NCBI GenBank assembly: GCA_965220245.1
Contig: CBDCPI010000008.1
Span: 265,264 to 329,263 of the forward strand
DNA length: 64,000 nt
DNA from: Dehalococcoidia bacterium
GTDB lineage: Bacteria; Chloroflexota; Dehalococcoidia; Lucifugimonadales; UBA3495
Direction: 5' to 3'
The stretch's first letter is position 1. Each line of letters opens with the position of its first letter. The notes beneath the pieces are model-generated. The model worked only from the letters and a program-made list of their open reading frames with translations, made no database searches and was not told the DNA's origin. Position numbers and translations under genes: made by a program. Of the stretch, positions 10,686-64,000 are shown piece by piece.

Positions 10686-10710
10686 CGCAATTCACTTCCG
10701 GCGCGACTAA

Positions 10711-11657: not shown

Positions 11658-11661
11658 CTAA

Positions 11662-32687: not shown

Positions 32688-35600
32688 TCATCCTCGGCGG
32701 TAGCAAGTTCCGCGTAGGGCCGGACGGCGCTATCGCCGGACTTCCGCTGCCATAAAAGGTCACGCTTGGAGGGGCACAGCGCGTCGAAGTCACAGTACTT
32801 GCAGTTGGCAAAAGAGCCGCGATCGGCATTGCCCGGATTGGCCGGGAAGACGCCGGCGTCAATGCCGGAGACGATCAGGGACATGGTCCGGTCGAATTCG
32901 TCCTTGACGTCCGCCAAGCGCATCGGAGACTTGGGAGCCATTGAGAATCCGCCCCGGTTGCTGATGAACCAGTAAGCAGAATTGACATCCACATCCTCGC
33001 TCAAACCGCTTTGGACCGCCAGCGAGTAGATGGCCAGTTGAAGGCGCTGCCCGGCCTGTATCGGGTCTTTGTCCATGCCGGTGTAGCCAGATGAACTGCC
33101 GGTCTTGTAGTCGCGCACCAGCGCCTTGCGCCCGTCGGGAGACACGTCGACGCGGTCGATGTAGCCGCGGAACTCGATCCTGTCCGTATTGGGAAGCGTA
33201 ATGGCTGCGGCCGGCCATCCTCCGGCCACCCCGAACCCGGCCTCCAGCCAGGCCGGGGTGACGCCGTGTTCGTATCTGAGCCTAGAGTCTTCTTCCAAGA
33301 ACCGGTGCAGGTCGGCTCGAATATTGGCTTTGTCCATCTGCCACATCAGGTCTCGGCCGGTCATGCCGCGGGACTCGACCTCGTCGAACCTTGCCTCGGC
33401 AATCTCCATCAAGCGACGCCGGTGAGCATCATTCCATGCCTGGTCCGGCCGGGGCGCCGTGTTTTGATTGATGGCCTCGCCAACGAAATTTTCCAGAATG
33501 GCGTGTACCAGTGTCCCCCGGTCCACTGGCGAGAGGGATAAGCGGTCTTCGGGCTTTTCCACGGCGCGCAACCCCAGCACTCGCGACAGAAAGTAGCTGA
33601 ACGGACACGTGGCCCAAGCCTCTAGGCTGGTGGCCGACAAGGGCCGACGGGGCGCCAACCGGGGCTGGTTAACGATGGCGTCGGCCACGTTCCCGTCCCA
33701 GAGAGTGAAGGCGCCGCCGTAGCGCAGCCGGGCCAGTTGCACCGGCTTGGCGAGAGGCCCGTCGCCCGCCGCCATTGGATGCCGGTCCAGGCTGGCGCCT
33801 GATTTCTGCCACGCCCTCATCGAGTCCAAGTCGTAGTCGTGCAGGTCGGCGACGGAGGTCCGGTCGACGCCGTCCAGCGACTTGTCCATTGAGCCAAGGA
33901 TGGTCAGCCAGGGTTGCGAGGCCAGCCCACCCAACGTCGATGGGTAAACGGCTTGGCCGCTGAGATTCGAGGCCCGTTCCAAGAACCAGCGGGACGGGTG
34001 CTGCTCGCGTCCGCCTATGGGGTCGGAGGCGGGGCAGGACAGCCACCGCACCGGTGCCGAGTGCAGGGCGGCCAAGAACGTGTACCGTTCCTCGCTGGCC
34101 CGGTAGTCCCGCAGCGGTAGACCGGCCCCGCTGCCTTGCCCTGATTGAGACGAGGCGGCGCGGGCGCGCTCCGGCAGCAAGGAGTCGTCCCGCTGCGGCG
34201 GCGGAAACGCCCCCTCGACCAGGCCCACGATATGGACCACATCAAAGCTCATCCCGGCTGCCGCCCCCACCGGGGCTACGAACACGCCGCGGCCCGTCTC
34301 CCCGATGCGGCCCGGAGATACTTGCAGCGCCTCCTGAAAGACCTGCTCAAATGCGGCAAAGTCGGGCTGAACGTCGACAAAGTCCGCATGGCCGACTTCC
34401 GATAGGATTTCACTCACCTGACGGTGAGCGGCGTGGCCGGTTTCCGGAGCATCGGGGCCAAGGTCGAGATAGCGGTCCAACAGGCCGCTGGCCCATCCGG
34501 CAAGACCGCCCCAAGTGTTGTCGCCGCTGGGCGGTGTTGTATCTCCGGCCAGTGTCTCGACGAAGTCCTGCAACTCCCGGGCCGCCTTGGCCCGGTATCG
34601 AATGCCCTCTATCTGGTGCTCGGACAGCTCGCCGCGTGTCGGCGCGTTAGCCGCTGCCTGCTCCAGACCTTCTGCGAAACTGTGGAGCCGCTGCGTCCAT
34701 TGGTCCCGTCCGCCGACCACACCGGCGTCCCGGGATATTGCATCCCAAAGGCTGGGGTTGATTTTGCGGCCAGCCGACCCAACTGGGCAGCCAGTAAGCC
34801 AAGCCATGACCTCGTCGCGCATAAAACCGCCCTGGCACAAACGCAGCAGGCCGGTCAGCGCACGTCCGGCGCCGGTGCTGGCCAGGGTGGCGGGGTTGGG
34901 CCCGGTGATAGGAATCCCGGCCAGTTTCAATTCCTCCAGTAGCTGGACGCCGTAGGGCTCCCGGCTGCGGTATAGCAGGGCCATGCGATGGAAGGGGACT
35001 CCGGCGTCCGCCTGCTGGACAATGTGGCGTATCGCGCTGCGTATTTCTTGGTGGGGGTCGGGCGCCACCAGCAGCGTCTCCCAGTCCAGCGTCTCACAGT
35101 CCGAGGAAGGAACTCCGTCGTCGTCTCGCAACCGCTCCGGCCGCTGGCCACTGGCCACCAGCCACTGGGATTGCGCCGGCCCGAATATGTGGGCCAACCG
35201 CTCCGCCACCAAATGCGCGGGCGCGTCGGCGGACTCGTCGCCAGTCAAGTCGAGGTACACCGAGCACTGCCCTGCCGCCGCAAGTGCTTCAATCAACGCC
35301 ATTTCGCCACGGGTGAGGCGGCGCACCTTGTAAAACACGACGAATCCCAAGTCGGCCAGGCCAAGCGAGTGGCTGCTTCTCACCGCCTCGGCGGCGGCGA
35401 GGGCCAGGTCTTCCCGGTCGTAGAAGCCGGTGGCCGTGCGCTCCCGGAAGGCCCGGTAGAGCCGCACCACCTCGGCGCGCAGACCGTCCTCGCCTTCCAG
35501 AATAGCGAGGGCATCCTCGGAGACCGGCCGCAGTTCGCGGAAGGTGCGCGCCAGGCTGCGAATGGTCGAAGGGTGAAGACGCTGCTCGCGGAGAGGGCCG

Positions 35601-35962
35601 GCCGCTTGGGCGCACACTGCTCGCACCGATGCGCTTTCAAGGACCGGCGTTAGCGGGCGCCGTCCTTGGGCGGCCAAAGCCGGGGCCGCCAGTAGCTCGG
35701 CTAGGCGGGGCAGCACCATAAATCGCACGTTACACAGGCCGGAGCGCCCCAGCTCTCGCCGCAGCTCAAGGTTGGCAAAGCCCGACGGCCCGATCACCGT
35801 TACCGGCCGCAGCGGGTCACCCCGTTGCAGCGATGCCACCGCCTCGCCCAACGCTTCGTTGGCTTGGCCGCGGTTGGTTTGGTCTCCGTTTGTTTGATCA
35901 ATGAAAAACAGCCCGGCGCCGTCGCGTCTCTCGGTTGCCTGCCCATTTCCAGTATTACTCAT
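32684..35962 (-). CDS. addB: AddB-like PD-(D/E)XK nuclease subunit with Fe-S cysteines
   Basis: 1092 aa. It has WATCPFSYF, the nuclease motif VRDYKTG, and a CKYCDFDALCP cluster. The Walker A is degenerate. Confidence 0.7.
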   Translation of the reverse strand: MSNTGNGQATERRDGAGLFFIDQTNGDQTNRGQANEALGEAVASLQRGDPLRPVTVIGPSGFANLELRRELGRSGLCNVRFMVLPRLAELLAAPALAAQGRRPLTPVLESASVRAVCAQAAGPLREQRLHPSTIRSLARTFRELRPVSEDALAILEGEDGLRAEVVRLYRAFRERTATGFYDREDLALAAAEAVRSSHSLGLADLGFVVFYKVRRLTRGEMALIEALAAAGQCSVYLDLTGDESADAPAHLVAERLAHIFGPAQSQWLVASGQRPERLRDDDGVPSSDCETLDWETLLVAPDPHQEIRSAIRHIVQQADAGVPFHRMALLYRSREPYGVQLLEELKLAGIPITGPNPATLASTGAGRALTGLLRLCQGGFMRDEVMAWLTGCPVGSAGRKINPSLWDAISRDAGVVGGRDQWTQRLHSFAEGLEQAAANAPTRGELSEHQIEGIRYRAKAARELQDFVETLAGDTTPPSGDNTWGGLAGWASGLLDRYLDLGPDAPETGHAAHRQVSEILSEVGHADFVDVQPDFAAFEQVFQEALQVSPGRIGETGRGVFVAPVGAAAGMSFDVVHIVGLVEGAFPPPQRDDSLLPERARAASSQSGQGSGAGLPLRDYRASEERYTFLAALHSAPVRWLSCPASDPIGGREQHPSRWFLERASNLSGQAVYPSTLGGLASQPWLTILGSMDKSLDGVDRTSVADLHDYDLDSMRAWQKSGASLDRHPMAAGDGPLAKPVQLARLRYGGAFTLWDGNVADAIVNQPRLAPRRPLSATSLEAWATCPFSYFLSRVLGLRAVEKPEDRLSLSPVDRGTLVHAILENFVGEAINQNTAPRPDQAWNDAHRRRLMEIAEARFDEVESRGMTGRDLMWQMDKANIRADLHRFLEEDSRLRYEHGVTPAWLEAGFGVAGGWPAAAITLPNTDRIEFRGYIDRVDVSPDGRKALVRDYKTGSSSGYTGMDKDPIQAGQRLQLAIYSLAVQSGLSEDVDVNSAYWFISNRGGFSMAPKSPMRLADVKDEFDRTMSLIVSGIDAGVFPANPGNADRGSFANCKYCDFDALCPSKRDLLWQRKSGDSAVRPYAELATAEDE

Positions 35963-44003: not shown

Positions 44004-44783
44004 ATGCCCTTCTTAACCCTTCCGGGAGTGGACCTGTGGTACCAGGACACCGGCGGCCCCGGTACTCCGGTGGTCTTCTTGCACGCCGCTTCGGGGACCG
44101 CCGAAAGCTGGGGGCATCAGTTGCCCGCCTTCACGCCGGCCGGCTACCGGTGCATCACCTACGACCGGCGCACCTGGGGGAGGTCCCGGCCCACCAGCCC
44201 CGACGATCAGCCGGGCTTCGTGGGAGACGACCTCCATGGACTGGTTGAGAGACTGGGCTTGGAGCGTTTCCACTTGGTGGCTACGGCGGCGGGTGGCATC
44301 GCCGGGCTGGACTACGCGCTGGACCATCCGGAGCATGTCCGCAGCCTGGTGGCGGCTAACAGCATCGGCGGCGTGCAGGACCCGGACTACCTGGAGGTCC
44401 AGAACAGGCTTCGACCGCCGGAGATACAGCAACTCCCAGTAGAGTTGCGCGAGCTTGGCCCCTCGTACCGGGGTACCGACCCGGAGGGCGCCGCCCGCTG
44501 GTTGGAGATCGAGTTGGCCAGCCGCCCTTATGGGAGGGCGCCCTCGCAGCCTTCACGCGACCCGATCACCTACGCCAGGTTGCAGACCATGCGCGTCCCG
44601 GTGCTGGTGCTGGTGCTGTCGGGAGAGGCGGACCTTCTCTCACCTCCGGCGCTGATGCGGATGCTGGCGGCCCATATCCCCGCCTCTCGTTTCGTCTCGC
44701 TCCCCGATGCGGGACACGCGGGTTTCTGGGAGAGACCGCAGATCTGGAATGGCCTAGTCTTGGAATTCATCGGCCAGCACTAG
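44004..44783 (+). CDS. Alpha/beta-fold hydrolase-like protein (nucleophile position is Ala)
   Basis: It has the HG-type N-terminus VVFLHAASG. The nucleophile elbow reads LVATAAGGIAG instead of GxSxG. Asp (GEADLL) and His (DAGHAGFWE) are retained. The stop TAG at 44781-44783 coincides with the IS630 insertion site. Confidence 0.6.
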   Translation: MPFLTLPGVDLWYQDTGGPGTPVVFLHAASGTAESWGHQLPAFTPAGYRCITYDRRTWGRSRPTSPDDQPGFVGDDLHGLVERLGLERFHLVATAAGGIAGLDYALDHPEHVRSLVAANSIGGVQDPDYLEVQNRLRPPEIQQLPVELRELGPSYRGTDPEGAARWLEIELASRPYGRAPSQPSRDPITYARLQTMRVPVLVLVLSGEADLLSPPALMRMLAAHIPASRFVSLPDAGHAGFWERPQIWNGLVLEFIGQH

Positions 44784-46016
44784 TAGTCCATCAGTGTTGT
44801 ATTGATGGGTATAGGGACTTAAGTTTGATGCGGGCGTCTGCGGTGGTGAACCGCCAGTCTACCCGCACCGTGTCCCGGTTGCGCTGACCTTGCCATGCTT
44901 CTATCTCCCGCCGAAGGGTGCTTTGGTCTGGAATGCGGCGGTTCAGGCATTGGCGTGCCAGCACCCCGATTTCGATCTCGGCCATATTCAGCCAACTCCC
45001 ATGCTTGGGCGTGTAGTGGATCTCCAACCGTTCGGCGATGCGTCGCGCTTCGGCGGGTTCAAACGCTTGGTACAGCGAGGCCGGATGATGGGTGTTCAGG
45101 TTGTCCATCACCAGCACTATCCGGTCCTTGTCAGCGTAGTCCACGTCCACCAGTTGCTTGACCACCCACGCCCAATCGGCTTTCGTGCGCTGCTCCGTCA
45201 CTTCCACCCGGCGCCATCCCTCCAACGGCGCGAACAGCATGAACAGGTTGCTCACCCCGTTGCGTTCGTATTCATAATCAAAAGCGCCTGCCGCTCCAGG
45301 GCGGGGCGGGCGCGGCAGGCGCTTTTCCTTCACCTGCTGTTTGCTGGTCTCGTCCAGGCACACCAGAACTTCGTTGTCCCTATATTGGCGATGGTAGACT
45401 TCCAGCACGTCCTCCATCGCGCACACGAACTCCGAACTGCCTTCCGGCGGGATGCACCAGCACTCTTTCAGCCAAGGCTTGAGTTCGTTTTTTTGAGCGT
45501 TTGGCGCACCGTTTCGGTGCTGATGCTCTCCACTATCTCGCATTCGATCAGCCGGTCCGCCAACAATTTCAGCGTCCAACTTACCCGGCCCTCCGGCGGT
45601 TGGGAGCAGGCCAATGCAACCAGATGGGCCTCTCCCTGACCGTCCAGCTTCTTCTGGCGGCGGTTAAGTTGCACTCTGCGTCCCAAGGCCGCTTCAACCC
45701 CCTCCTCCACGCAACGGCGGCGCACCCGTTCCACCGTCGCACCGCCAATCCGGAGGGACCGGGCAATTTCCTCGTCCTTCATGGCCCCGTCACCTTGGGC
45801 CTCATCACTCAGCAGCAAGATGCGGGCGTGGGTCTGCTTGTAGGCCGCCACCCGCCCCCGGGACACCAGCGCCAGTAGTTCCTCTTGCTCCTCCGCACTC
45901 AGTTTGACCCGGTATTTCTTCACCGACATCCCCTCCTCCCACGCCCCAATCCTCTTGGTCCTATGCCTGGTAGAATACACCCGGCCAGTCCTCAATTCAA
46001 AACTGTTAGGCTACTA
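44781..46016 (-). mobile_element. IS630-family insertion sequence, copy A (1236 bp including TA flanks)
   Basis: TIR TAGTAGTCCATCA / TAGTAGCCTAACA with TA at both ends. orfA is 45468-45995 (HTH) and orfB is 44791-45579 (DDE). They are linked by a -1 frameshift at the T7/A7 run 45488-45494. It is diverged from copies B and C. Confidence 0.85.
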
Positions 46017-46221
46017 GGCCGCGAACGGGTCCGTATTGGGGTGTACTGAAACCTTTTTGTCCAGCTTGGTTGGCCTGAGTGCACGGTAGGTGGTACTGTC
46101 TTCGAGATGTGGCTGGGGCACGATTAACCCACTGACGACTTCTGTCCAAATAACGGGGTCCACCTCAGCTATGGAGTACGCCCCGTCCTTGATATCTCAA
46201 AATGCGGTGTATTTCGCATCT

Positions 46222-47358
46222 TAGTTAACTGATGTTACGCAGCCTTAAGGAGTTGGAGTTCATCGAAAGCATGGCGAATGGCCGTGAGATAGAGCCGGGC
46301 TCTCAAGGCAAAGTGGTTCATTCCATGCTTCAACCGGAGTCCTTCCAACCGGAAGGCCGCATAGATGGACATGAAACAGTGGTTGCTCTGAGTGCGCTCC
46401 GTCCGGGTAGGCGACTTGGCCAGGGCGGCATTGGACTTGAGCGTCTTATGAAAGGTCTCCACTTTCCACCGTTTCTGGCAGATCCCGCAGATGGTTGGTC
46501 CATCACAGTCCAGATCGCTTGAGGCCAGATACAATGTCCCGGTGCTGCCATCCTTGTTTGTAAAGACCTGGCGAACGAGTTGGACCGGAAAATCCAACCC
46601 CCTCAGCCAGCACTGCACCGCTTGGTGTTCCGGCAACTCCAGCGAGTCTATGCGGGAGAAGTTGCCCTGAAGTTTCCCTTCATAGCTCAGTGCTGCCGTC
46701 CGGTTCGGCTTGAGTGCAACAACGAAATGCCGGTCCAGTTCCTGGCGTATGAAATCCAGGTTCTCCTTGGCGGCAAGCCAGCTGTCAGCCAGCACGTAGC
46801 GGTATTGCAACTGATTGCGCTGGCAGACTCGCAGCATCCGGCGCATGAGTTCGTTCTTGGTGACCTCGCTCTTGCGCTTGAGCCTGCCGGTCTTCTCATC
46901 GTGGTACACCAGCGGCTTTCGGACCAGTTCGTAGGCCACGGGAACCGCTGCATCCCCGGCGTAGTACACGCAGTTGAGCAGGTTGATCCCCTTGACGGAA
47001 CGGTTCTTGCTATGGTCGAAATGCCAGCTAATCAGTTCGTTCTCGTCCGTATAGGGCTTTTCCTCGATGGTGTCATCGAAGATCAGCGCCCCGTCCGGGT
47101 CTTCGATGGCGCGCACCATTGGCTTGACCTGTTGCCACAGGGTTTTGGAGTCATAGTCTGCCCTAGATAGAAAGCGCGTTACCTGGTCATGGCTGACCGC
47201 CCCTTCCACTGTGGATGACAACCCGTGTGGATGACAACCCGGTGGCGGTGGTGGCGCCAAAGGAACTCAACAGGTAATCGGTGTACAGTTCTAACATCTG
47301 TTTATCCATGGCTCTAATCTACCATTTCCCTCAACCTGTGCGTAACATGAGTTACTTA
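46222..47358 (-). mobile_element. IS4/IS701-like superfamily IS with an inactivated transposase
   Basis: TIR-like ends are ttagttaactgatgttacgc (from 46221) and gcgtaacatgagttacttat (to about 47358). The transposase runs from 47309 to 46235 (SHDQVTRFL ... IFDDTIEEKPYTDENELISWHFDH). It is broken by a 16-bp tandem duplication at 47210-47241. The ends are approximate. Confidence 0.65.
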
Positions 47359-49535: not shown

Positions 49536-50287
49536 GACGGCTACCGCACTCCTGCCTTAAGTTCTTGGGCCAGATTGTTCAAACCATTGCTGTCCTGAGC
49601 GTGAATCTTCGGGTTGCCTATCTTTTCATAGAATTGCAAGAATTCCTCCAAGGGGAGGAGTTCGGCACCTTCCCGGGTAGTTCGGCCAACTGAAACTTCT
49701 TCCCCTGAATGGTGATTCCTGAGCCGGCTAACGCATTCTTCCACGACCCTGATGTCCAAGGAATCTGTGCTACTTGCCTTCTCAAAGGTGGAACTGACCT
49801 CCTTCAAGAAATCCCCATTCAAGTCGAGATCTCCTTCTGACTCTTGCATCAGAGATTGCCACTCTTCCAAGAGTTCTTGCCGCCGCTGCATTCGCTCCAC
49901 TTGTAGTTCGTTCTTGATTGCCTCAAGAGCATCATATACAGGCCTGAAGTTGAGGACTGCCTCTACGTCCAAGTCTCCCAAAGTGTTCTGGAGTTTATTC
50001 CACTGGGATCCTTCAAATTCGATTACTCCATCTTTCTCAGCCTGGTCAACAGCAGCCTGAGTCAGTTCAATAGCTGCTCTGAGTGTATTCTTCTCGGTAG
50101 TAAGCTCCGCCATGTACCTGTTCTTGTTGTGGTCCAATGACTCCTTGGGCATTCCCGACATCAAGAGGCCGGAAAATCGGAAATCCCGGTGATCCATACG
50201 GCTCTGTAGTGCGGCTTCCAAAGAAACGCTTCCTTGGCGCAAGCCTGCTATGGCCCTAGCCAAATCCACCAAAGAGTCCTCTGACGC

Positions 50288-51523
50288 TAGTAGTCCAACA
50301 TCTTTGAATTGAGTACTGAGCAAGTGTATTCTACCAAGCATAGGGCGAAGAGGATTGGGGCGTGGGAGGAGGGGATGGCGATGAAGAGATACCGGGTCAA
50401 GCTGAGCGCGGAGGAGCGGCAGGAACTGAAGGCATTGGTGTCCCGTGGCCGGGTGGCGGCTTACCAGCAGACCCACGGGCGTATCCTGCTGCTGAGTGAT
50501 GAGTCCCATGCGGACGGGGGCATGAAGGATGAAGACATTGCCCGGGTTCTCCAGATTGGCCGTGCGACGGTGGAACGGGTGCGCCGCCGTTGCGTGGAAG
50601 AGGGTCTGGAGCGGGCCTTGGGGCGCAAGGAGCAACTGAACCGGAGGCAGAAGCGGTTGGACGGTCAAGGAGAAGCCCACCTGATTGCCTTGGCCTGCGC
50701 TGAACCGCCAGAGGGCCGGGCCAGTTGGACGCTGAAACTGTTGGCCGACCGACTGGTCGAATGCGAGATAGTGGAGAGCATCAGCCCTGAAACAGTGCGC
50801 CAGACGCTCAAAAAAACGAACTCAAGCCTTGGCTGAAAGAGTGCTGGTGCATCCCGCCGCAAGGCAGCGCCGAGTTCGTCTGTGCGATGGAAGACGTGCT
50901 GGAAGTCTATCAGCGCCAGTATGCGGACAACGAAGTTCTGGTCTGTCTGGACGAGACCAGCAAGCAACAGGTGAAAGAGACGCGCCGGCCGCGGCCGGCC
51001 CAGCCTGGGGCGCTGGGCTCCTACGATTACGAATACGAGCGCAACGGGGTGAGCAACCTGTTCATGTTGTTCGCTCCGCTGGAAGGGTGGCGCCGGGTGG
51101 AAGTGACGGACCGGCGCACCAAAGCCGATTGGGCCCGGGTGGTCAAGCAACTGGTGGACGAGGACTACCCGCACAAGGACCGTATTGTGCTGGTGATGGA
51201 CAACTTGAACACCCACCACCCGTCCTCGCTGTACGAGGAATTTGAACCTGCCGAAGCACGGCGCATCGCCGAACGGTTGGAGGTCCACTACACTCCCAAG
51301 CATGGCAGTTGGCTGGATATGGCCGAGATTGAAATCGGGGTGCTGGCCCGCCAATGCCTGGACCGCCGTATTCCCGATCAAAGCGCTCTGCGGCGGGAGG
51401 TGGGAGCGTGGCAGCAACGGCGCAACCGGGACGGCATACGAGTGGACTGGCGCTTTACCACCGAGGATGCGCGCATCAAACTGAAGTCCCTTTACCCATC
51501 AATCCAACACTGATGGACCACTA
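50288..51523 (+). mobile_element. IS630-family insertion sequence, copy B
   Basis: TA-flanked, with TIR TAGTAGTCCAACA / TGATGGACCACTA. orfA is 50309-50836 and orfB runs to 51513. They are linked by a -1 frameshift at A7 (50810-50816), giving LKKNELKPWLKECWCIPP. Differs from copy C by only a few SNPs. Confidence 0.9.
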
Positions 51524-53430: not shown

Positions 53431-54917
53431 CTAGCATTGCCAACGATATCTCCTTGTCTGGAAGGCCGACCTCCTATTAAGTTCTCTGCCTGGTTGATAA
53501 CTTCGGCGTACCGATCCCGATTGAGACCATCGATGTAGCTCTGCACTGTGTTGACCTGGTCCCTCATGTCTTGCGAAAAAGGCGTCAACATTTGGTAAAG
53601 AACACCTTCTCCGCAAAGGTATTGCCATGCTCTTACAGCCCTGGAAAAATTGGTCTGATATTTAGGGGCTTCCTCCAACCACTTTCGAGCCTCTGCGCTT
53701 GCCTCCACAATCAAGCCTTGGAGCCGCTGCAGACCCTCATCGCCAGTGATGTGCTCCGGGCGTAGGGAATTCCCTGCGGCGGCGAACACTCTAATCGGAG
53801 ATACGATTGATTCGATAGCTGGCAGGCAACGAGGGGAGGAAAGCCACGCGAGAAGATTCGTTTCGGGAGCTATTAGTGTTGGCAAGAGGCCTGCAGACAG
53901 CCGAAGCAAAGTTTGTGCGTCGTCGTCGTCAATGGCTTCGAATTCGCCTACTATGTCAAATAAGTCCCCCACGTACGTATCAGAATCTGAGGAGAGCCAG
54001 CGCCCTCCTTGCAAAGCTTTCAACACTTGAGGTGGGACGGGCGGATTCGACCCCTGAGCGATCATTGACCTCGCGACCCAGTAGGCTCCTGCCAAGTCGT
54101 CCTGCGCTACGAGATCCCAAAGGATCGACGGGACATCATGGACAGGGTGTCGCTTGGCGAAAACCGTGTAAGTTCGCGTCGTTTCGTTGTCTTCCGCCGT
54201 AACCATAACGTGCAAGGCTAAGTTGTCCTTCCCTAGAGCATCCCCGGCAATTACAAAGCTACCATCATCGGACAATGAGCTATCGACTGTCGTACCGTCA
54301 GACAGAACAGCGGCCAAAACAACAGTAGCCTCTGCATGGGCAGTTTCAGGGACAATGGTCAAACTGTCCAACTCTTCAGGCAAGTCTACGTTAATTTGGT
54401 TATCTCCCGGAGGAAATTCCAAGGGCGTTTCTTGCAGGTGCAGCCTCTCAAGGCTGGCATTGCTGCTTCGGGTGGGGGCCACCAAACTGTTCGGTGCCCG
54501 AGTTACGGCCAACTTGTAGGTTTCGCTGTATACGGGATCTTCAACGACAATGTTGATGGAGATGACAGTCTGGCCGACAACGAGATTCGAGACAACGAAC
54601 GTTCCGTGGTCGGATTCCAATTCTTCGATAATTTCGCCATTTGGTGTTAGAACGGCTACCTCGAAGGTGACGTCCACATGATCTGACTCTGGTGTAATGG
54701 CTAGCGATTCTACCGCATTGTTCAAATTTATCGTGTAGTTCGTCTGCGTTGGGCTAAAGTCCAAAGTCCCTACGGATAGCCCAATTGTGGACAGGCGCTC
54801 AGTGTTGTTGGGTTCCTGTTCCGCGATACGAACCTGGTGATCCGGTGTCGACTCAACTGGGTCTTGAAATACAGCATCCGCTGTCGTCAGCGCCTTATCC
54901 AATTCTGATTTGAGATC

Positions 54918-56153
54918 TAGTAGTCCAACATCTTTGAATTGAGTACTGAGCAAGTGTATTCTACCAAGCATAGGGCGAAGAGGATTGGGGCGTGGGAGGA
55001 GGGGATGGCGATGAAGAGATACCGGGTCAAGCTGAGCGCGGAGGAGCGGCAGGAACTGAAGGCATTGGTGTCCCGTGGCCGGGTGGCGGCTTACCAGCAG
55101 ACCCACGGGCGTATCCTGCTGCTGAGTGATGAGTCCCATGCGGACGGGGGCATGAAGGATGAAGACATTGCCCGGGTTCTCCAGATTGGCCGTGCGACGG
55201 TGGAACGGGTGCGCCGCCGTTGCGTGGAAGAGGGTCTGGAGCGGGCCTTGGGGCGCAAGGAGCAACTGAACCGGAGGCAGAAGCGGTTGGACGGTCAAGG
55301 AGAAGCCCACCTGATTGCCTTGGCCTGCGCTGAACCGCCAGAGGGCCGGGCCAGTTGGACGCTGAAACTGTTGGCCGACCGACTGGTCGAATGCGAGATA
55401 GTGGAGAGCATCAGCCCTGAAACAGTGCGCCAGACGCTCAAAAAAACGAACTCAAGCCTTGGCTGAAAGAGTGCTGGTGCATCCCGCCGCAAGGCAGCGC
55501 CGAGTTCGTCTGTGCGATGGAAGACGTGCTGGAAGTCTATCAGCGCCAGTATGCGGACAACGAAGTTCTGGTCTGCCTGGACGAGACCAGCAAACAGCAG
55601 GTGAAAGAGACGCGCCGGCCGCGTCCGACCCAGCCTGGGGCGCTGGGCTCCTACGATTACGAATACGAGCGCAACGGGGTGAGCAACCTGTTCATGTTGT
55701 TCGCTCCGCTGGAAGGGTGGCGCCGGGTGGAAGTGACGGACCGGCGCACCAAAGCCGATTGGGCCCGGGTGGTCAAGCAACTGGTGGACGAGGACTACCC
55801 GCACAAGGACCGTATTGTGCTGGTGATGGACAACTTGAACACCCACCACCCGTCCTCGCTGTACGAGGAATTTGAACCTGCCGAAGCACGGCGCATCGCC
55901 GAACGGTTGGAGGTCCACTACACTCCCAAGCATGGCAGTTGGCTGGATATGGCCGAGATTGAAATCGGGGTGCTGGCCCGCCAATGCCTGGACCGCCGTA
56001 TTCCCGATCAAAGCGCTCTGCGGCGGGAGGTGGGAGCGTGGCAGCAACGGCGCAACCGGGACGGCATACGAGTGGACTGGCGCTTTACCACCGAGGATGC
56101 GCGCATCAAACTGAAGTCCCTTTACCCATCAATCCAACACTGATGGACCACTA
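54918..56153 (+). mobile_element. IS630-family insertion sequence, copy C
   Basis: Same ends and TA flanks as copy B. orfA is 54939-55466 and orfB runs to 56143. Confidence 0.9.
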
Positions 56154-57388
56154 AACTAAAGCCAAGGTGGGATGTACATATGGCCGGTGGTGGGGATCGG
56201 TACGAGGGTTACGCGGGAGCCCCTCTGCTCTTGATTGCAGGATGGTCCGGCAGCGGCGCTTGACCTCCTCTTTCCGCCCGGCCAGCCCATCGAAGAAGTT
56301 CCCGACCCTCTCCTGAACCAGTTCCTTGGTCCCCAAGCACAGATTTCCGGTGGCCTCCTCTCTCGCCCAGCCCCAGATGGCCTCGTCAGCGTTGAAGTCC
56401 GGGCTGTATCCCGGCAGGTTCACCAGCCGCAGGTTCACTCCGGGCTTGCCCAGCCATTCCCGCACCGCGTATCCCCGGTGGGCCGGCGCGTTGTCCCAGA
56501 TCACGTTCAGCCGACCGCTGTGCCTCTCCCTCAACTGCTCCAGGAAGGCTGCCGACGTTCCTGAGTTGCTGTTCCCCTCCAGTTCCATCCACTCCACCTG
56601 GCCGGTCTCCAGGCACACCGCCGAATAGTAGCTGGCCTTCTCTCCGTAGCGCGGGCTAGTCGAGTCCACCAAGGCTGGCTCTCCCCGGAGCACCCATTTG
56701 CCCCGCAGTTCGGCGTCCGCACGGAAATGGGCCTCGTCGGCGAAGAATATCTTTTCCCCGGATTCTTGAGATTGGAATGCCAAGGCGGCGTACTCCTCCA
56801 CGAAGGCCTCCCGTTTCTCCGCATCAGCCTTGAGCAGACGCTTTTTGGGGCGCTTGAACGCGAATCCCAGACGGTGCAGATAGTTCAGGCAAGAGCTGCG
56901 GCTCAGGCTGATACTGAAGCGCTCCGAGGCAAACAGCCGCACCACCTTCCAGTTCCAGTTGGCCATGACGATGCCCGACTTGGCGGGCAACTCCTGCACC
57001 GCGGCACTCAACGCCGCCTGCTGCGCCTCTTCGAGGGCGGGGGGGAACCACCGGACTGCTCGAAGATCAGGGCCGCCGGACCTCCCTCGCTGAAGGCGGT
57101 GGCCCATCTGCCGATGGTGTGAGCATCCCGGCTCAGTGCATGGGCGGTGGCCGAGGCGGTCATGTTCCGGCACAGGAGCCACAGAGCGTGCCACCGTTCT
57201 CTTTCCCGAGGCGTCGGCGCCAGGTACATCCTGCTGCGCACACCAGCCAAGTCCAACTGCCACCGTTCCAAGTCCGGTCTTATCCCCCTCATACCCATCA
57301 CCATCCCCACTCAGTCTGTTCCCCGTCCTGACGCTATACCTCCCTGATTCTAGCCAACGTATATGCAGGTTTCACCTTGGCTTTGGTT
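56154..57388 (-). mobile_element. IS630-family insertion sequence, copy D (distinct lineage)
   Basis: TIR AACTAAAGCCAAGG / AACCAAAGCCAAGG with TA on both sides (56152-56153 and 57389-57390). orfA is 57008-57310 and orfB is 56151-57263. They are linked by a -1 frameshift at the C7/G7 run 57039-57045. Confidence 0.8.
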
Positions 57389-58501
57389 TAGTATGCTCCG
57401 AGTATCCGCGTCATGCTCCCCTCTCAGACGTTGTGTTTCGCTGAAAGAGGATCCCATCTTGGGAGCAGGATCATATCCCTTTAAGAATCCGCCAAACTGT
57501 GTCAATGTCTCGCGAATGTGGGCCACTTCTGCCGAGGACGAGCTAACGGGGACCTCCCAGTTACTCAAATCAAGCTCCAAGTACTCCAACAAACTGGAGA
57601 ATTGAAGCAAATCAGCAATGATTGCATTGAGTGCTTGGACAGCCGCGACCGACTCGCGGTCGTCATTTTTCCTATCGACGATATCGTTAACCGAAGATAC
57701 GAAATCAGGGACATCGGCGAACCACTCCGGAGCATCAGAAGGCAGAAGTTCCAAGAAGCGGAGTGCTTGCGCAAGAGCGTCTTTGTTCATCGAGTCCGCC
57801 TCAACTTTTGATTCGGCTTTACTGCCAGTAGGGATCTTGTCTGCCGCAAAGCATAGCATCAGGGCCACGTCATCTTGACTTAAGTCCCCGTGAACAGCCA
57901 GGACGCCTTCTTGTTCGGACTTCCAGTCGTCTTCCGACCACGTTCCTCTGAACCTATAGGCAACAAAATCAAGGTATTCGACGTCCATGTCCCTGCTGTA
58001 AAGGTAACGTTTAACGATAGCGTACAGGGTCTCCTGAGACGCAAACCAAGCGTGTAAGACCGCGTTGGCCAGTGGCTCTGAACGGACCAATTGGTCAATG
58101 ATACGGTGTTTAAGAAGCGGAGCCGGTGCGATTGCCGGCTGCTTGGGAAACTGTGGCACTTTTACGGCAGAGTTGATCGCGGCGTCGAGCTCACGATGCA
58201 CTTCGTTAGGCAATTCAGCCTTATGATTGAGAACGTGAACTACAATAGACTCCTCGAATTCCTGAGGCATCAGATCAAGGAGTGACATGTGCCGTAAGTC
58301 TGTTGGCATCTTCGGGCTGCGCTCAGCCATCAGGCATAGCTCGCTTTCCTGGGGGCCGCTTCATTGACTTCCCCGACTTCCCCAGAGGTTCAACTCTCGA
58401 AGGATTATCGCAAGGCGGATTTTGTTTGGCAATGAGACGGACCGTCTTCAGGTCACTCCTGCGCAACGGTTAGCAGTTTTCCCACAGCGGTTTCCACGGC
58501 T

Positions 58502-59035
58502 TTACCCTCCAGCGATGTGCGCAGCCACGTCCGCAACGGCGGCGTGCAATCCCTGATCAGGGTCGAACCTTGGGATGGGCAGCCTCCACAGGCGCTTGTG
58601 CAAGTCCCGTGCCCCAAACAGGCCCCTCGTCATAAGCGGTGTCACAGCATCTCTTAGCGCGGCGCTGTTAATGATTGCCAGCAGATAGTTGGCTTCATCT
58701 ATGTCCCGGCAAGGAATCCAAAACAGCACATTTTCTACCAGGGCGGTGTTGTCATGCAAAATGGCCGCACTGGGCTCACCTGATTTTGAGTACACCACTC
58801 TCACTTGCCCGTCGTCAAAGTTTCTTTGCCATTCCAACTGCGATGACAGCTTATGTAGATAGTCCAGTTGCCCCAGAAGGTTTAGTCTGTTGACCGGCGC
58901 CTTGTTGTCCTCCCACAATCCGCTAACCGTCTGCCAACGCTCTCGCATCCTTCGTTCCAGACTCCCCAACCTGATGCCGCCGAGGCCGTTGTCATCAGCA
59001 AGTATAGCAGGATCCCCGCGCTTCAGGGGGAGCAA
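58502..59035 (-). pseudogene. C-terminal fragment of a DNA-methyltransferase/type IIG R-M-like protein
   Basis: The N-terminal side is cut by the MITE at 59038-59217. The tail FWIPCRDIDEANYLLAIINSAALRDAVTPLM ... LWRLPIPRFDPDQGLHAAV resembles C-terminal regions of large SAM-dependent DNA methylases. The resemblance is from memory only. A further coding-looking tail lies in another frame after 58502. Confidence 0.3.
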
Positions 59036-59037
59036 AG

Positions 59038-59217
59038 CCTTAAGTGGTCAGGGCAACCGCATTCTAAATTACACATTCGTCACTCCCGCGAAAGCAGGAA
59101 TCCAGAGACCGCAATGTAGCGCAATTGGGAACCGCACCGGCGATTTCAGGCAATAGATTCCTGCTTTCGCGGGAATGACGGGAGCGATCTAATTAGAATG
59201 CGGTTGCCCTGCTTAAG
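59038..59217. mobile_element. 180-bp MITE with TIR CTTAAG..CAGGGCAACCGCATTCTAA
   Basis: The ends cagggcaaccgcattctaa (59049-59067) and ttagaatgcggttgccctg (59193-59211) are perfect inverted repeats. Two ATTCCCGC-type hairpins lie inside (59078-59103 and 59156-59181). Confidence 0.6.
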
Positions 59218-60164
59218 AGCCTATCCTAATAATCCGGCAGCCCTGAAAGCAATAAGGGCACAGGCGAAATGAAGAAAGGCGATGTAGTTTCTGGGAAACT
59301 TGTCCCAGCGCACCAGAATGCGCCGGAAGCGGTTCATCCAACTGTGGGTGCGTTCCACCACCCAGCGCCGGGCTTTGAAGCCAGCCTCCTTTTTGATGGC
59401 CTGGGCTTTGATGGCCTGGGCCTCCTCGCCCCGGCTGCGGATGTGGGCGGTGAAGCCGAATTCCTCCAGGGTTCGGCGCACCTCCTCATAGTCATAGCCC
59501 TTGTCCGGGCACAGACCTTGGGGACGCTCCGGAGTGGGCGCCGGGCGCGGCACCGGGAAACTGTCCAGCGTAGCCCGCACCAGTTTCATGTCGTGGCGGT
59601 TGGCTCCGTCCACCGCCAGCCCCACCGGGATGCCCTCAGCTTCGGTCAACAGACTGCGTTTGACCCCGCTCTTGCCCCGGTCCGTGGGGGTTGGGGCCGG
59701 TTTTTTTCCCGCCCAGGGGGGATTTGGTTATCGCCCCGTCCATGCTCAGCCAACTCCAGTCCAGACCCTTCAATTCATCGTACTCTTGCAGGCCCGCCCG
59801 CCACAGCTCCAGGAACACCCCGGCGGCGGCCCACTCCTGGAAGCGCAGATGGGCGGTGGATCCGGAGCAAATGCCCGTGGCATCCAGGGCTTTCCATTGG
59901 CAGCCGGTGCGCAGCACGTAGAATATGCCGTTGGCGCAGGTCCGGTCCGGGACCCGGGGACGGCCTCCGCCCCGGGGATGAGTGTTCACCCGCTGGGGAA
60001 GCAACGGGGCCAGCACTTCCCACAGTTCATCGGATACCTGAAAGGAGCCGGTGGTGGGGTTGACCGGCGCCGCTGGGCCGGCGCGCTTCGGTCGTGGCGG
60101 CTTGGGTTCCTTCGCTTTCGTCATACCACTAGTTTAGCTCGAATTCTGTTTTTAGGATAGGCAC
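59218..60164 (-). mobile_element. IS5-family (IS427/IS1031-like) insertion sequence, copy 2, inverted relative to copy 1
   Basis: Near-identical to 10711-11657; the coding differences are R to Q in orfA and L to P in orfB. orfA is 59636-60124 and orfB is 59221-59649. The flanks, in IS orientation, are CTAA and CTTA, so they do not match. Confidence 0.85.
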
Positions 60165-60390
60165 TTAGAGGTAACGGTATTGACCCCTTCAGGGAAGGAA
60201 CTCGCTAGATTCTGTGAACACGAACCGAGTTTAGAATATTTATCATGTTTCGCCAGATATCTAGAAACACAGAATTGTAGCCTGAAACTGGCTCCGATAA
60301 TTAGCGTGACCCCGGACGGGAGAATGCAGTTCTATGAAAGGGAGTTGCGTACCTTGTGATAAGGATCCTGAGAGTTGAGGTATCCTCACC

Positions 60391-63300
60391 ATGGCCACGA
60401 CTAATGCTAAGCGTCTAATCGAAGTCGCCTTCCCCCTGAAGCAAGTCTCCTTGGATTCGGTGCATGAGAAGAACGTGCGGCATGGGCACATCTCCACCCT
60501 GCACATCTGGCCGGCGCGGCGTCCCTTGGCGGCGTCGCGGGCCGCGCTGATTGCCACGCTGCTGCCGGACCCGGGCGATGCTGAGGAGCGCAAGGACATC
60601 CTGGAGCGCATGGCGGGACGGGTCACCGAAAAAGTGGAGCGCAAGCGCGTCAACGGCCGGATGGTCGAGAAGGTGAAGGAGGAGACGGCCGGGGGCATCC
60701 TACATTGGGGGCGTGAGAATGGGCCGGACCTGGAGTGGTTTCGCAACCAAATCCGCGAAGCCTACGGCGGGCGGGCGCCCAAGGTGCTGGACCCCTTTGC
60801 CGGCGGCGGCGCCATCCCCCTAGAGGCCATACGCCTGGGCTGCGAAGTAACCGCCATGGACATCAACCCGGTAGCTTGGTTCATCCTCAAATGCACCCTC
60901 GAATACCCGCAGAAGCTGGCGGGCCAGACTCGCCCCTTGCCGGAGTTTGCCCTGGCCGACCGGGAGTTCATGGAGGCGTTCCTGAAGGCGAAGGGCTTCA
61001 AGGGGGCCAGGCTGCGGACGTTCCTCGAACGCCTCGGACACGGTAAGGGTGAGGGGCGTCAACTCGGGGAGTTGTCCCAATACGATTCGATAGCCGAAGC
61101 AGACCTGGCCTGGCACGTGCGGGCCTGGGGTTGGTGGGTGCTGGCCCGCGCCCGTCGGGAGTTGGCTTCCTGCTATCCCACCTACGCCGAGTTTCAACCC
61201 TTGACTCCTACCGGAGACGAAGAACGACGCCCCTTGTGGCTCCTTGACCTGGACGAAAACGGCGTTGCCCAACTCGACCCGCTCAACGCGGAGTTCGACG
61301 ACTCCTACCTCAAGGGCCCTCGCAACCCGCGTTGGGTTGCCAAGCCCACGGTGGCCTACCTCTGGGCGCGCACCGTGTCCTGCAAGCAATGCCGGGCCAC
61401 GCTGCCCCTGCTCAAGACCCGTTCCGTTGGCTGTGCAAGAAGGACAACAAGCGCGTCCTTCTGGCGATGGAGCCGAACTCGGACCGGACCGGCGTTACCT
61501 TCGCCGTACAGCCCGATGTGCCCCAACACGGCGGCAACACGGCGCAGCGGCGGGAGCACGATAAGCGCATTGGGGCAGGAACCATGTCCCGGACCGGCGC
61601 AACCTGCCCCTGCTGCGGCGCAATTATGACCATGAGCGACATTCGCTATGAAGGGCAAGCCGGGCGTCTGAGTGCGGTTATGACTGCCGTAGTGGTGGAT
61701 GGCGTTAAGGGCAAGGAAGACCGCTTGCCGATGAACCACGAAATCGAGGTGGCTGAGGTAAGCGAGGAGCAGCTTCAAACCCTTTATGCAGAAATCCCTT
61801 TCGGGCTGCCGGAGGAACCTTTGCCCAGCAAAGAGGCTCTCGGATTTCGTGTCCCACTATATGGCTTCGACACTTGGCGCAAGCTGTTCACAAACCGGCA
61901 GCTATTGGCATTAGCCAACTTCCTAAAGAGTTCGGAAGCCACCGAGCTAATGATCCAGCCAACTAAGGATCAGGAGATATGGTCAGAGAGCATAGATGCT
62001 TGTTTGGCATCGATGTTAGACCGCCTTGCGAATCAAAACAGCGCTATTTGCCGTTGGCATAACAACGGAGAAAAGGTCGAAGGGACGTTTTCCAGGTTTG
62101 CTCTGCCGATGGTTTGGGACTTTGTGGAAACGAATCCGTTGGGATTGGCCACGGGTGGTTATCTGAGTGCGTTGGAATGGGTTTCACGAGTAGTCTCACA
62201 CGCTTGTTCAGCGGCAGACGTTTCTCCCAAGTCTGAAGCCCTTTGTCAGAGCGCTTTAGAATCATTAGGTCAGAAGGTTGACATTATCCTAACTGATCCA
62301 CCCTATTACGACGCCATTCCTTACTCAGACTGTATGGACTTTTTCCATGTTTGGCTTCGACGAGCGACACACGGGCTTTCTCCTGAAATGGACGCCGCGT
62401 TTCAGGAACCCCTTGGCCCCAAATGGAATCATGACACCCGCGACGGCGAGTTGATTGACGATGCCAGCCGGTTCGACGGCAACAGAACACTATCAAAGAA
62501 GAACTACGAAGACGGGATGGCCCGTGCGTTCCAAGCCTGCCACGCTACGTTGCAACCCGACGGGCGGCTTGTGGTAGTGTTCGCCAACAAGCAGCCCGAT
62601 GCGTGGGAGACGTTGGCGGCTGCCTTGATACGCGCCGGATTCGTCGTTGATGGTTCTTGGCCCATCCAAACAGAAATGGGTACTAGGACTCGTGCAATGA
62701 CCTCAGCAGCCCTGGCTTCCTCTGTCTGGCTGGTCTGCCAGAAGCGGCCTCCGGGCTCTCCTGGATGGGATAACATCGTCTTGGGCGAGATGCGGGAGAA
62801 CGTCACTCAGAAGCTGCGTGACTTCTGGGACGCCGGGATTCGCGGCCCCGACTTCGTTTGGGCCGCCACCGGCCCCGCGCTGGAAGCCTTCAGCAAGCAC
62901 CCGGTGGTCAAGAAGGCAAACGCTCCCGACGATGTTATGACTGTTTCGGAGTTCCTGCGCGAGGTGCGGCGGATGGTGGTCGATTTCGTCGTGGGCCGGG
63001 TGCTGACCAAGGGCGGTGAGGAGACGGTGACCGGCCTTGACGACGTGACAACCTACTACCTGCTGCACCGCAACGACTTCGGCCTTGAGGATGCGCCAGT
63101 GGGCGGCTGCATCCTCTACGCACTGTCCTGCAACCTCTCCGACTCGGCGCTGGTGAACCAGCACGACCTTCTGGCACAGTCCAGGAACGGCTCGACAGCC
63201 AACGACCTCGAAGACGACGCCTCCGAGGATGATGAGGGCGAGGACGACAGCGAAGGCGGAAGCGGCGCAAAGGTCAAGCTCAAGCCTTGGCACCGGCGCC

Positions 63301-63599
63301 GGGGACGCAGCCTCGGCTTGGAAGCGCCGGGAGGGCGGACCGCGCCCCTTATCGACCAGGTACACAAGTTGATGCACCTCTGGCGGGCAGGCGACCAGGT
63401 CCGAGTTAACGAGTATCTGGACAGCCGGGGCCTCCAACGCAACGCCCTGTTCCACCAGCTATTGCAGGCGCTCATCGAACTGGCCCCCGCCGGCTCCGAC
63501 GAGCGGACCATCCTGGAAGCCCTGAGCAACCACGCCGCCGCCCACGGCGACGTGCGCGCGCCACGCTACCGGCAACCCCGGCTGGGAGAGTCGTCATGA
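60391..63599 (+). pseudogene. DUF1156-family DNA methyltransferase (defence-island associated), frameshifted
   Basis: The N-terminus KRLIEVAFPLKQVSLDSVHEKNVRHGHISTLHIWPARRP is DUF1156. It has SAM motif I VLDPFAGGGAIPLEA and motif IV ILTDPPYYD. The reading passes from frame 1 to frame 3 at 61420-61422 (LLKTR | FRWLCKKDNKRV), consistent with loss of 1 nt. Confidence 0.7.
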
Positions 63600-64000
63600 T
63601 AACCTCGGTCTGCATGGTCAACTTCAAGAACTTCGCCGACGAAACGCTGAAAGTCGGCCCCTTCGCTGAAAGTCGGCCCCTTCACGGTAATCGTGGGGGC
63701 CAACGCCAGCGGCAAAAGCAACATCCGCGACGCCTTCCGCTTCCTCCACGGCATCGGGCGCGGCTACACCCTCGCGGAGATTCTGGGGGGTAAGTATGGC
63801 CCGGGCGGGCAGAGGGAGTGGGCGGGGATTCGGGGGGCGCCTAATGAGGTGGTTCGCTTCGAGAAGCGTTACCCTTATGAGTCTTCTACGTTCACCATTC
63901 ACTTGGAACTAGATCTGGGAGGAGAAAAGGCGGCCTCTCTGATTAAGGTGGAACTCAATCCGAAATCAGGGTTCGCGGTGTTGGAAGAAGATCTGAAGAC
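63596..64000 (+). pseudogene. AAA (AAA_15/21-like) ATPase, 3'-partial, disrupted by a 19-bp tandem duplication
   Basis: ATGA start/stop overlap with the DUF1156 gene. MITSVCMVNFKNFADETLKVGPF is followed by the duplication, then by TVIVGANASGKSNIRDAFRFLHGIG (Walker A) in the shifted frame, which stays open to the window end. Confidence 0.65.

Follow-up and report, generated by a model that had tools for sequence, protein, structure and literature searches.

Downstream of an insertion sequence (IS), the 3' part of the window (the whole 64,000-nucleotide stretch analysed here) carries what is probably the 3'-ward remnant of an Hma/Type-1 BREX-related system with nested accessory cassettes, inactivated by three events. 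The Hma system, an anti-phage system consisting of the HmaA helicase, the HmaB methylase and the HmaC ATPase, was defined by Payne et al. 2021 (PMC8565338) and has also been named the Type-1 DUF499-centred BREX-related system (PMC12839542). We label the locus an Hma / Type-1 BREX-related remnant with hmaB and nested ABC-ATPase pseudogenes, hmaA having been lost at the IS. It represents no new methyltransferase-ATPase architecture and matters little beyond its correct annotation.

Two overlapping open reading frames, 60391-61629 (412 aa) and 61332-63599, together represent one DUF1156 protein with the following features:

60391..63599, + strand: hmaB pseudogene, DUF1156 N6-adenine-type DNA methyltransferase (PADLOC HmaB, Pfam DUF1156)
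60427-60588, + strand: DUF1156 N-terminal domain of HmaB
60790-60810, + strand: motif I, DPFAGGG
61381-61392 (CKQC) and 61605-61616 (CPCC), + strand: Zn-ribbon cysteines
61419..61428, + strand: perfect 5-bp tandem duplication, CCGTT CCGTT, absent from relatives
61901..62270, + strand: hypervariable low-GC module, approximately aa 505-628 (GC content, blastn breaks, block identity)
62295-62306, + strand: DPPY (motif IV)

The product matched PADLOC HmaB (E=1e-112) and Pfam DUF1156 (2e-18) and, weakly, N6_N4_Mtase and MethyltransfD12, so that the initial annotation of a DUF1156 N6-methyltransferase from a defence system, with SAM motif I and DPPY, holds. Its reading of both frames as a single protein also stood; the size it gave, about 1,069 aa, did not, as deletion of one CCGTT copy would give an intact protein of 1067 aa. 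Homologues number in the thousands, the best 120 being full length (1040-1076 aa) and 75-85% identical, and nucleotide homology of related loci to the window starts at 60373-60391. No solved structure was related to HmaB by sequence.

The hypervariable module lies directly upstream of the DPPY motif. Its GC content is 0.49, whereas hmaB on either side of it has 0.62-0.63, and blastn alignments of hmaB to most relatives are interrupted at 61910-62268. Identity to the 120 relatives falls to 23-69% within the module, against ~0.9 in most other 40-residue blocks of HmaB. We regard it as a candidate specificity region, and its position before the DPPY motif is a modest point of wider use.

The hmaB reading frame switches where LLKTR ends (61422) and FRWLCKK starts (61422), between both halves of the Zn-ribbon. 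The break itself had been placed correctly, at 61420-61422, and ascribed to the loss of one nucleotide; alignment with seven intact relatives (L001, L003, L006, L007, L009, L010 and L077 in our numbering of related loci) instead identified the frameshift as the CCGTT duplication, missing in all seven. These relatives read ...CTCAAGAC(C/G)CG(C/T)TGGCTGTGC..., encoding LLKTRWLCKK, and the window reads ...CTCAAGACCCGTTCCGTTGGCTGTGC..., with 5 bases more. Other truncated products from the same 90% clusters that were sequenced beyond the lesion site read LLKTRWLCKK and are broken elsewhere; none carried the CCGTT lesion. Programmed frameshifting was considered and rejected, as the extra bases occur in no relative and no slippery heptamer is found at 61410-61428. 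Restored HmaB departs from only 1 of 275 invariant columns, the median for its relatives also being 1.

The gene that follows carries a lesion of the same kind:

63596..64000, continuing past the end of the window, + strand: 5' part of an ABC-type ATPase pseudogene (Pfam AAA_21/SMC_N/AAA_15, PADLOC PDC-M07A)
63646-63664 and 63665-63683, + strand: 19-bp perfect tandem duplication, GCTGAAAGTCGGCCCCTTC twice, absent from 8 relatives

Both the coupling of the two genes, in which the hmaB stop overlaps the ATPase start codon (ATGA, 63596-63599), and the breakage of the ATPase gene by exact 19-bp tandem copies had been recognised initially and were confirmed. The duplication shifts the frame 17 codons past the start, upstream of the Walker A motif; deleting one copy yields an uninterrupted N-terminus with Walker A GANASGKS at 63696-63719. 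This restored N-terminus matched Pfam AAA_21 (4.8e-9), SMC_N (5.4e-9) and AAA_15 (2.2e-7), in agreement with the AAA_15/21-like assignment made at the outset; the accompanying description as an AAA ATPase needs correction, for despite the Pfam family names it is an ABC/SMC-type P-loop ATPase and not AAA+. Against PADLOC, the 128-aa fragment matched PDC-M07A (4.9e-19) and HEC-01A (5e-13), and full-length relatives matched the same models at 4e-68 and 4.6e-37, respectively. Those relatives are 431-434 aa long (394 aa as called in the low-coverage locus L085). The fragment shows 68-83% identity to the ATPase of L003 and departs from 1 of 34 invariant columns.

Gene order was surveyed in 80 species-representative related loci, with downstream counts taken from the 54 that had at least 9 kb of downstream sequence. 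The order was always helicase-nuclease HmaA, a slot, HmaB, a slot, and DUF499 HmaC. A helicase was found upstream in 61/65 loci and DUF499 downstream in 52/54; this ATPase gene directly followed the methyltransferase gene in 16/54, and the gene for its ~190-aa partner (p190) was present in 14/54. In relatives, the helicase matched PADLOC HmaA (2.7e-162) and Pfam NOV_C (1.9e-12), and the DUF499 protein matched HmaC (2.9e-70) and Pfam DUF499 (3.8e-15). Embedded genes have been reported in 62.7% of Hma loci, ABC ATPase cassettes being the commonest (Payne et al. 2024, bioRxiv 10.1101/2024.01.29.577857), and in every Halomonas hma locus hmaB is separated from hmaC by an AAA_21 ATPase gene and one that lacks annotation (Liu et al. 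2024, PMC11232893). The gene order is thus that of a known Hma system with a known kind of nested ATPase cassette, and ordinary.

The initial annotation had proposed a variant architecture, with an AAA_15/21 ATPase replacing DUF499 as the partner of the methyltransferase. Within the window the ATPase gene is indeed the sole gene visible after hmaB, and the two overlap by ATGA, but comparison with intact loci makes this reading barely credible. The closest of them (L001, L002/L003 and L085) have hmaB, the ABC ATPase gene, the ~190-aa gene and then canonical DUF499. The ATPase gene is ATGA-coupled in L001, L002/L003, L005, L009, L034 and L077 too, and wherever downstream sequence exists it is followed by p190 and by DUF499, ~1.85-1.9 kb from hmaB. 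The two loci without DUF499 (L036 and L079) also lack a helicase match covering at least 30% of HmaA, L079 retaining only short C-terminal HmaA fragments. From relatives only, we infer that a p190 gene and hmaC follow in the window's genome; among the best 120 clusters listed in a search with the DUF499 protein, none had the window's contig as its longest contig. Duplicated gene-end fragments also occur in related loci and suggest a route by which nested cassettes are exchanged, another modest point of wider use.

DUF3780, named at first as an expected partner, belongs elsewhere: it marks the Type-2 BREX-related systems, whose helicase is an HKD-helicase (PMC12839542). It had no match in the five non-methyltransferase genes of L003 (Pfam, E<=1) or in the small gene after hmaC, and none was present among precomputed Pfam hits for L001, L002, L003 and L085. 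The helicase of the window's clade carries a NOV_C nuclease, which assigns the locus to Type-1/Hma.

Judged from its relatives, the ATPase gene heads a pair of genes that form a nested cassette between hmaB and hmaC. The second, p190, encodes a divergent DUF4276/TOPRIM-like protein that has no annotation in databases. Close p190 proteins had no Pfam match, and their sole PADLOC match was a marginal one to HEC-01B (E=0.009, one of three proteins tested); PDC-M07B models gave no match. An AlphaFold2 model (pLDDT 82) had four beta-alpha units, and Foldseek returned nothing significant from the PDB (best E=0.04). Alignment to single DUF4276 sequences with hhalign was weak (E 0.0026 to 0.3). Only individual scans of diverse family members settled what p190 is: out of 57, 24 matched Pfam DUF4276 (best 2e-07) and 4 matched RloB. 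Across the 57, E8 does not vary, and D74 and D76 are each conserved in at least 90%. Through these more distant members, p190 can be tied to DUF4276/RloB-type TOPRIM proteins, a link that is also of modest wider use. HEC-01 (Hma-embedded candidate 1) pairs an ABC ATPase with a DUF4276/TOPRIM protein; when assayed in E. coli it did not confer defence (Payne 2024, 10.1101/2024.01.29.577857).

Upstream, the locus ends at an IS:

59216..60168, - strand: IS5-family insertion sequence (inverted near-identical copy, Pfam)
59636-60124 (DUF4096, 2.7e-24) and 59221-59649 (DDE_Tnp_1, 2.1e-15), - strand: IS open reading frames (Pfam)
60165..60359, + strand: remnant of a DUF2806 (Abi-alpha-like) gene, last ~61 codons and stop (tblastn)

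An inverted copy of this IS lies at 10707-11659 (99.7% identity over 953 bp), and the truncated Hma locus is bounded upstream by the IS at 59216-60168. Exactly where it ends, the DUF2806 gene is cut: residues 231-291 of the 304-aa L007 protein matched 60165-60347 by tblastn (E=2e-7; L006 protein, E=1.3e-7). Full-length relatives of this remnant matched Pfam DUF2806 (8e-36, 1e-31 and 6e-34), and in related loci the gene occupies the slot between hmaA and hmaB. Its N-terminal part was found nowhere in the 64-kb window, nor did tblastn with a 1198-aa HmaA find a helicase there. An inversion between the two inverted IS copies was rejected as an account of where hmaA had gone, no helicase or DUF2806 N-terminal sequence being found by the other copy or elsewhere in the window.

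Apart from the lesions, the coding sequence is conserved to the degree seen in intact relatives; the damage would then be recent, or the duplications may be assembly errors. If both frameshifts were sequencing or assembly artefacts, the organism would have undamaged hmaB and ATPase genes, and the upstream truncation would be the one real lesion. Deleting one repeat copy does restore perfectly conserved proteins, and in a 15-billion-protein collection the split products were found only on the window's own 804,488-bp contig; a third perfect out-of-frame tandem duplication (16 bp, 47210-47241) in a transposase gene 14 kb away could point to a systematic error. We nevertheless consider an artefact unlikely. 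The restored 1067-aa HmaB was absent from the same collection, and all three duplications lie in dispensable genes, as expected of real mutations that selection tolerates. The locus was independently damaged by truncation at the IS, which makes decay plausible. To our knowledge, perfect 16-19-bp tandem duplications are not a usual consensus error in short-read, HiFi or nanopore data, which speaks against an artefact; consensus errors on these platforms are concentrated in homopolymers.

The same three duplications (5, 16 and 19 bp), perfect, out of frame and within 17 kb of one another, could also be read as reversible off-switches, in which loss of one copy by slippage restores function; each is exactly revertible and sits in an otherwise intact reading frame. 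A host could then turn off defence and mobile genes that are costly or toxic to itself, and the locus would be switched off rather than dead. This we hold to be highly improbable. None of the 7-8 relatives compared carries duplications at the hmaB or ATPase sites, and the window lacks hmaA, the one Hma component for which defence activity has been demonstrated (PMC11232893), so that a reactivated hmaB would not bring the system back. In that study, HmaA alone defended against T4 via its nuclease and HmaB had no detectable effect on T4 (PMC11232893).

For the preferred reading, a decayed Hma remnant, the closest loci suggest an ancestral layout of hmaA, the DUF2806 gene (slot 1), hmaB, the ABC ATPase gene with p190 (slot 2) and hmaC. 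Literature and domain content suggest that HmaB would methylate host DNA, HmaC, an ORC/Cdc6-like protein, would recognise foreign DNA, and HmaA, which in the ancestral layout joins an SNF2 helicase to a NOV_C / PD-(D/E)xK nuclease at its C-terminus, would nick or degrade it. On the same grounds, the nested ABC ATPase and TOPRIM pair may form a split OLD/Gabija-like nuclease module of the HEC-01 type, presumably co-transcribed and, in the window's clade, translationally coupled by ATGA overlaps. A truncation ending at the IS would have taken away hmaA together with most of the gene in slot 1; the 5-bp tandem duplication would have frameshifted hmaB, and the 19-bp tandem duplication the ATPase gene.

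Compared with known systems, the relatives of the locus share the methyltransferase/DUF499/helicase core with Type-2 BREX-related systems (DUF1156-type methyltransferase, DUF499, DUF3780, HKD-helicase) but differ from them in the genes of L003, which lack DUF3780, and in the helicase, which carries NOV_C and not HKD. With Hma the locus shares an HmaB (PADLOC 1e-112) whose 75-87% identical relatives lie in HmaA (SNF2 + NOV_C)/DUF499 loci of like order and strand. Unlike a working Hma system, the window has no hmaA, a frameshifted hmaB, and hmaC beyond its end, if there at all; it is a remnant.

The nested gene resembles HEC-01 and PDC-M07 in that its product is of the same broad ABC ATPase family. 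As in HEC-01, it lies nested among the hma genes and shares their strand; its position after hmaB is that of 16/54 relatives, and the partner in relatives, p190, comes from a family in which 24/57 diverse members match DUF4276. The ATPase differs from HEC-01 in fitting PDC-M07A better than HEC-01A, in its frameshifted gene, and in a partner gene outside the visible sequence. Close p190 proteins match HEC-01B only marginally (0.009) and PDC-M07B never. The hmaABC locus of Halomonas meridiana (PMC11232893) also has an AAA_21 gene and a small unannotated gene between hmaB and hmaC, likened here by position, and its hmaA-hmaB interval holds other defence genes. It differs in host group and in slot 1, which holds Septu there and DUF2806 or an OLD-family nuclease in the window's clade.

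The DUF1156 locus that closes the window belongs, as a new but decayed member, to the known Hma system (hmaA, helicase-nuclease; hmaB, DUF1156 methyltransferase; hmaC, DUF499 ATPase), and the cassette nested in it is of a known kind. ORF listing and direct translation bore out the coordinates and description in the initial annotation with one exception, the nature of the hmaB frameshift. The hmaB features (direct translation; first ORF also by ORF listing) were as follows.

60391-61629, plus strand, first hmaB ORF (412 aa)
61332-63599, plus strand, second open frame; joined with the first, one DUF1156 protein
60790-60810, plus strand, motif I (DPFAGGG)
62295-62306, plus strand, DPPY motif
61381-61392 (CKQC) and 61605-61616 (CPCC), plus strand, split Zn-ribbon

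Frame 1 (...CKQCRATLPLLKTR) has its last position, and frame 3 (FRWLCKKDNKRV...) its first, at 61422. Intact relatives read LLKTRWLCKK (DNA, ...CTCAAGACCCGCTGGCTGTGC...), and their alignment with the window (A3) identified five extra bases, a perfect tandem duplication of CCGTT at 61419-61428; because a 5-base insertion and a 1-base loss shift the frame alike, the lesion, with its two extra residues (FR), had been mistaken for a 1-nt loss. DUF1156 membership was upheld, the restored protein matching PADLOC HmaB (1e-112) and Pfam DUF1156 (2e-18); its homologue in related locus L003 matched NCBIfam "anti-phage-associated DUF1156". A protein search yielded HmaB homologues by the thousand; the 120 best are full-length proteins of 1040-1076 aa with 75-85% identity. 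Since the frameshift parts the two Zn-ribbon cysteine pairs, and motif I from DPPY, complementation between the two fragments seems unlikely. Just upstream of DPPY, HmaB aa ~505-628 (window 61901-62270) form a hypervariable low-GC module (GC, 0.49 versus 0.62-0.63 in the flanks) that is 23-69% identical to relatives, compared with about 90% for most other HmaB blocks. A near-identical allele is present in P0178/L085 (L085 being a related locus), and the module is a candidate target-recognition module swapped by recombination.

The hmaB stop codon overlaps the ATG of the following ATPase gene (ATGA, 63596-63599), as first described, and the 19-bp duplication reported in that gene was confirmed.

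63646-63683, plus strand, 19-bp tandem duplication, GCTGAAAGTCGGCCCCTTC twice (direct translation, alignment A2)
63696-63719, plus strand, Walker A, GANASGKS (translation with one repeat copy removed)

Without one copy, an ABC-ATPase N-terminus runs uninterrupted to the window end; this 128-aa fragment matched AAA_21 (4.8e-9), SMC_N (5.4e-9), and AAA_15 (2.2e-7) in Pfam and PDC-M07A (4.9e-19) and HEC-01A (5e-13) in PADLOC. None of eight relatives (alignment A2) carries the 19-bp duplication. As the 5-bp and 19-bp duplications are missing from the compared relatives, both lesions are window-specific.

Nucleotide homology to related loci starts at 60373-60391; gene remnants and mobile elements lie upstream.

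60165-60347, plus strand, DUF2806 C-terminal remnant, last ~61 residues (E about 1e-7 to 1e-8)
59216-60168, IS5-family element (953 bp), 99.7% identical to an inverted copy at 10707-11659
50287-51523, 54917-56153, and 44781-46017, three IS630-like copies (DDE_3; 99.6% and 85% identity)
58502-59035, minus strand, 177-aa C-terminal fragment of a type IIG restriction-modification enzyme (PADLOC REase_MTase_IIG, 6e-5)

Full-length relatives of the remnant match DUF2806, and its reading frame is truncated precisely where the IS5-family element ends. Each copy of that element carries, within its transposase, an in-frame tandem duplication of 15 bp (AQAIK AQAIK). Neither helicase sequence nor the N-terminal part of DUF2806 is present anywhere in the 64-kb window. 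The IS5-family pair and three IS630-like copies mark a recent IS expansion. The type IIG fragment adjoins a 326-aa ORF with no match in Pfam, PADLOC, or NCBIfam, and this region (57350-59035, minus strand) is probably debris of another defence locus. Elsewhere (29304-35962, minus strand) an AddA/AddB-like pair is encoded; both proteins have PD-(D/E)xK domains, and the 1127-aa one also has UvrD helicase domains. The other, of 1092 aa, occurs identically on a Logan contig of ERR13605531, a run that may include reads from the same organism.

The locus has been inactivated by at least three events: hmaA and slot 1 (between hmaA and hmaB) were lost at an IS, hmaB was disrupted by the 5-bp duplication, and the ATPase gene by the 19-bp duplication. 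Duplication aside, restored HmaB departs from 120 relatives in a single one of 275 invariant columns (M147I; median of 1 deviating column in leave-one-out controls on the relatives), and the ATPase fragment at 1 of 34 (R6C); with both otherwise conserved, the lesions are of recent origin or else artefacts. Scanning for perfect tandem duplications turned up a third that is out of frame, of 16 bp (TGTGGATGACAACCCG twice, 47210-47241), in the following ORF.

46235-47260, minus strand, transposase-like ORF

Removing one copy extended the ORF to a plausible N-terminus (MDKQMLELYTDYLLSSFGATTATGLS...). Together, the 5-, 16-, and 19-bp duplications suggest either slippage-type mutation or a systematic artefact of assembly. 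That three events fall within 17 kb and only in dispensable genes fits real slippage under relaxed selection, and would fit systematic assembly error as well. A single 804,488-bp NCBI/ENA contig is the only one in the protein collection to carry the split products (412 aa; 657 aa from 61626), and restored HmaB was not found. At most a few of 80 species representatives have disrupted methyltransferases (e.g., L034), so a doubly hit locus is not the norm.

Four related loci were examined closely.

L001: helicase, OLD-family ATPase-TOPRIM, DUF1156, ABC ATPase (431 aa), 190-aa gene, DUF499 (1106 aa)
L002/L003: same order as L001
L085: helicase, DUF2806, DUF1156, ABC ATPase, 188-aa gene, DUF499

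L085 is closest at the DNA level (87% across 60409-63839). In L003, the helicase (SNF2 core, C-terminal NOV_C domain) matched PADLOC HmaA (2.7e-162), the DUF499 protein HmaC (2.9e-70), and the ATPase PDC-M07A (4e-68). Eighty loci of species-representative genomes (mostly uncultured Dehalococcoidia, Caldilineaceae, Latescibacterota, Binatia, Poribacteria, and Proteobacteria), mapped by tblastn, had one invariant order: helicase, slot 1, methyltransferase, slot 2 (between hmaB and hmaC), DUF499. Among loci with enough flanking sequence, the helicase was upstream in 61 of 65 and DUF499 downstream in 52 of 54; this ABC ATPase lay directly 3' of the methyltransferase in 16/54, and the ~190-aa gene (p190) was present in 14/54. 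One cluster of methyltransferase-to-DUF499 gaps, at 1851-1886 bp, matches the ATPase-p190 two-gene cassette. The relatives suggest a source among uncultured, largely sponge- or sediment-associated lineages, but methyltransferase identity of 70-80% across several phyla clearly points to horizontal transfer of the system.

Slot 1 of L001 (3223-5115), L002/L003 (8076-10004), and L022 (8082-9986) holds a 630-642-aa OLD-family ATPase-TOPRIM nuclease in place of DUF2806, giving such loci both a fused and a split ATPase-TOPRIM module. Related loci also have, within slot 1, additional short pieces duplicated from the 5' end of hmaB (aa ~8-55) and the 3' end of hmaA (aa ~1085-1190), some forming an hmaB-5'/hmaA-3' junction.

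L038 7693-7839, 10001-10375; L045 9983-10099; L048 6451-6561
L059 7977-8069; L065 6966-7091; L075 3920-4334
L068 8481-8765; L016 7994-8060; L032 4520-4582, 6761-6820

Such copies are the scar expected if homologous recombination on conserved gene ends stacks or swaps nested cassettes.

The p190 gene, located beyond the window, is known from relatives alone.

L003 14496-15068 and L001 9586-10158, p190 gene (both outside the window)

Close members had no Pfam match, and of the PADLOC models only HEC-01B was hit, marginally (E=0.009, one of three proteins tested). The AlphaFold2 model (pLDDT 82; four beta-alpha units) had no significant neighbour in the PDB. Profile searching across 1.84 billion representative proteins gave a family of 637 clusters; among 57 diverse members, 24 individually matched Pfam DUF4276 (best, 2e-07) and 4 matched RloB. 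Invariant E8 follows strand 1, while D74 and D76 (>=90% conserved) follow strand 3, which is the TOPRIM pattern; C172 is likewise invariant. Because HEC-01B belongs to DUF4276 (supplement of Payne 2024, bioRxiv 10.1101/2024.01.29.577857), we infer that ATPase and p190 form a HEC-01-type split ATPase-TOPRIM module, a putative function; HEC-01 gave no defence in the assays of that study.

The helicase, methylase, and ATPase operon was named Hma by Payne et al. 2021 (PMC8565338), and HmaA alone protects E. coli from T4 via a PD-(D/E)xK nickase (Liu et al. 2024, PMC11232893). Genes are embedded between hma genes in 62.7% of Hma loci, 96.7% of the embedded genes lying on the host system's strand; the commonest are ABC ATPases with TOPRIM, NERD, or PIN partners (HEC-01 to HEC-03) (Payne et al. 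2024, bioRxiv 10.1101/2024.01.29.577857); all Halomonas hma loci carry an AAA_21 ATPase gene and an unannotated gene between hmaB and hmaC (PMC11232893). The initial annotation suggested a possible variant architecture with the ATPase, as far as the window shows, in place of DUF499. Judged by that annotation's own check of the downstream genes, the suggestion fails in every informative relative, and a replacement was rejected, intact loci showing ATPase, p190, then DUF499. Given published nested ATPase genes between hmaB and hmaC and DUF499 in the relatives, the methyltransferase-then-ATPase order in the window is the published nested arrangement of Hma, renamed the Type-1 DUF499-centred BREX-related system in a 2026 BREX survey (PMC12839542). 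DUF3780, initially named as a usual partner, is placed by that survey in the Type-2 subtype, the one with an HKD-helicase, and is not expected in the window's hmaB clade.
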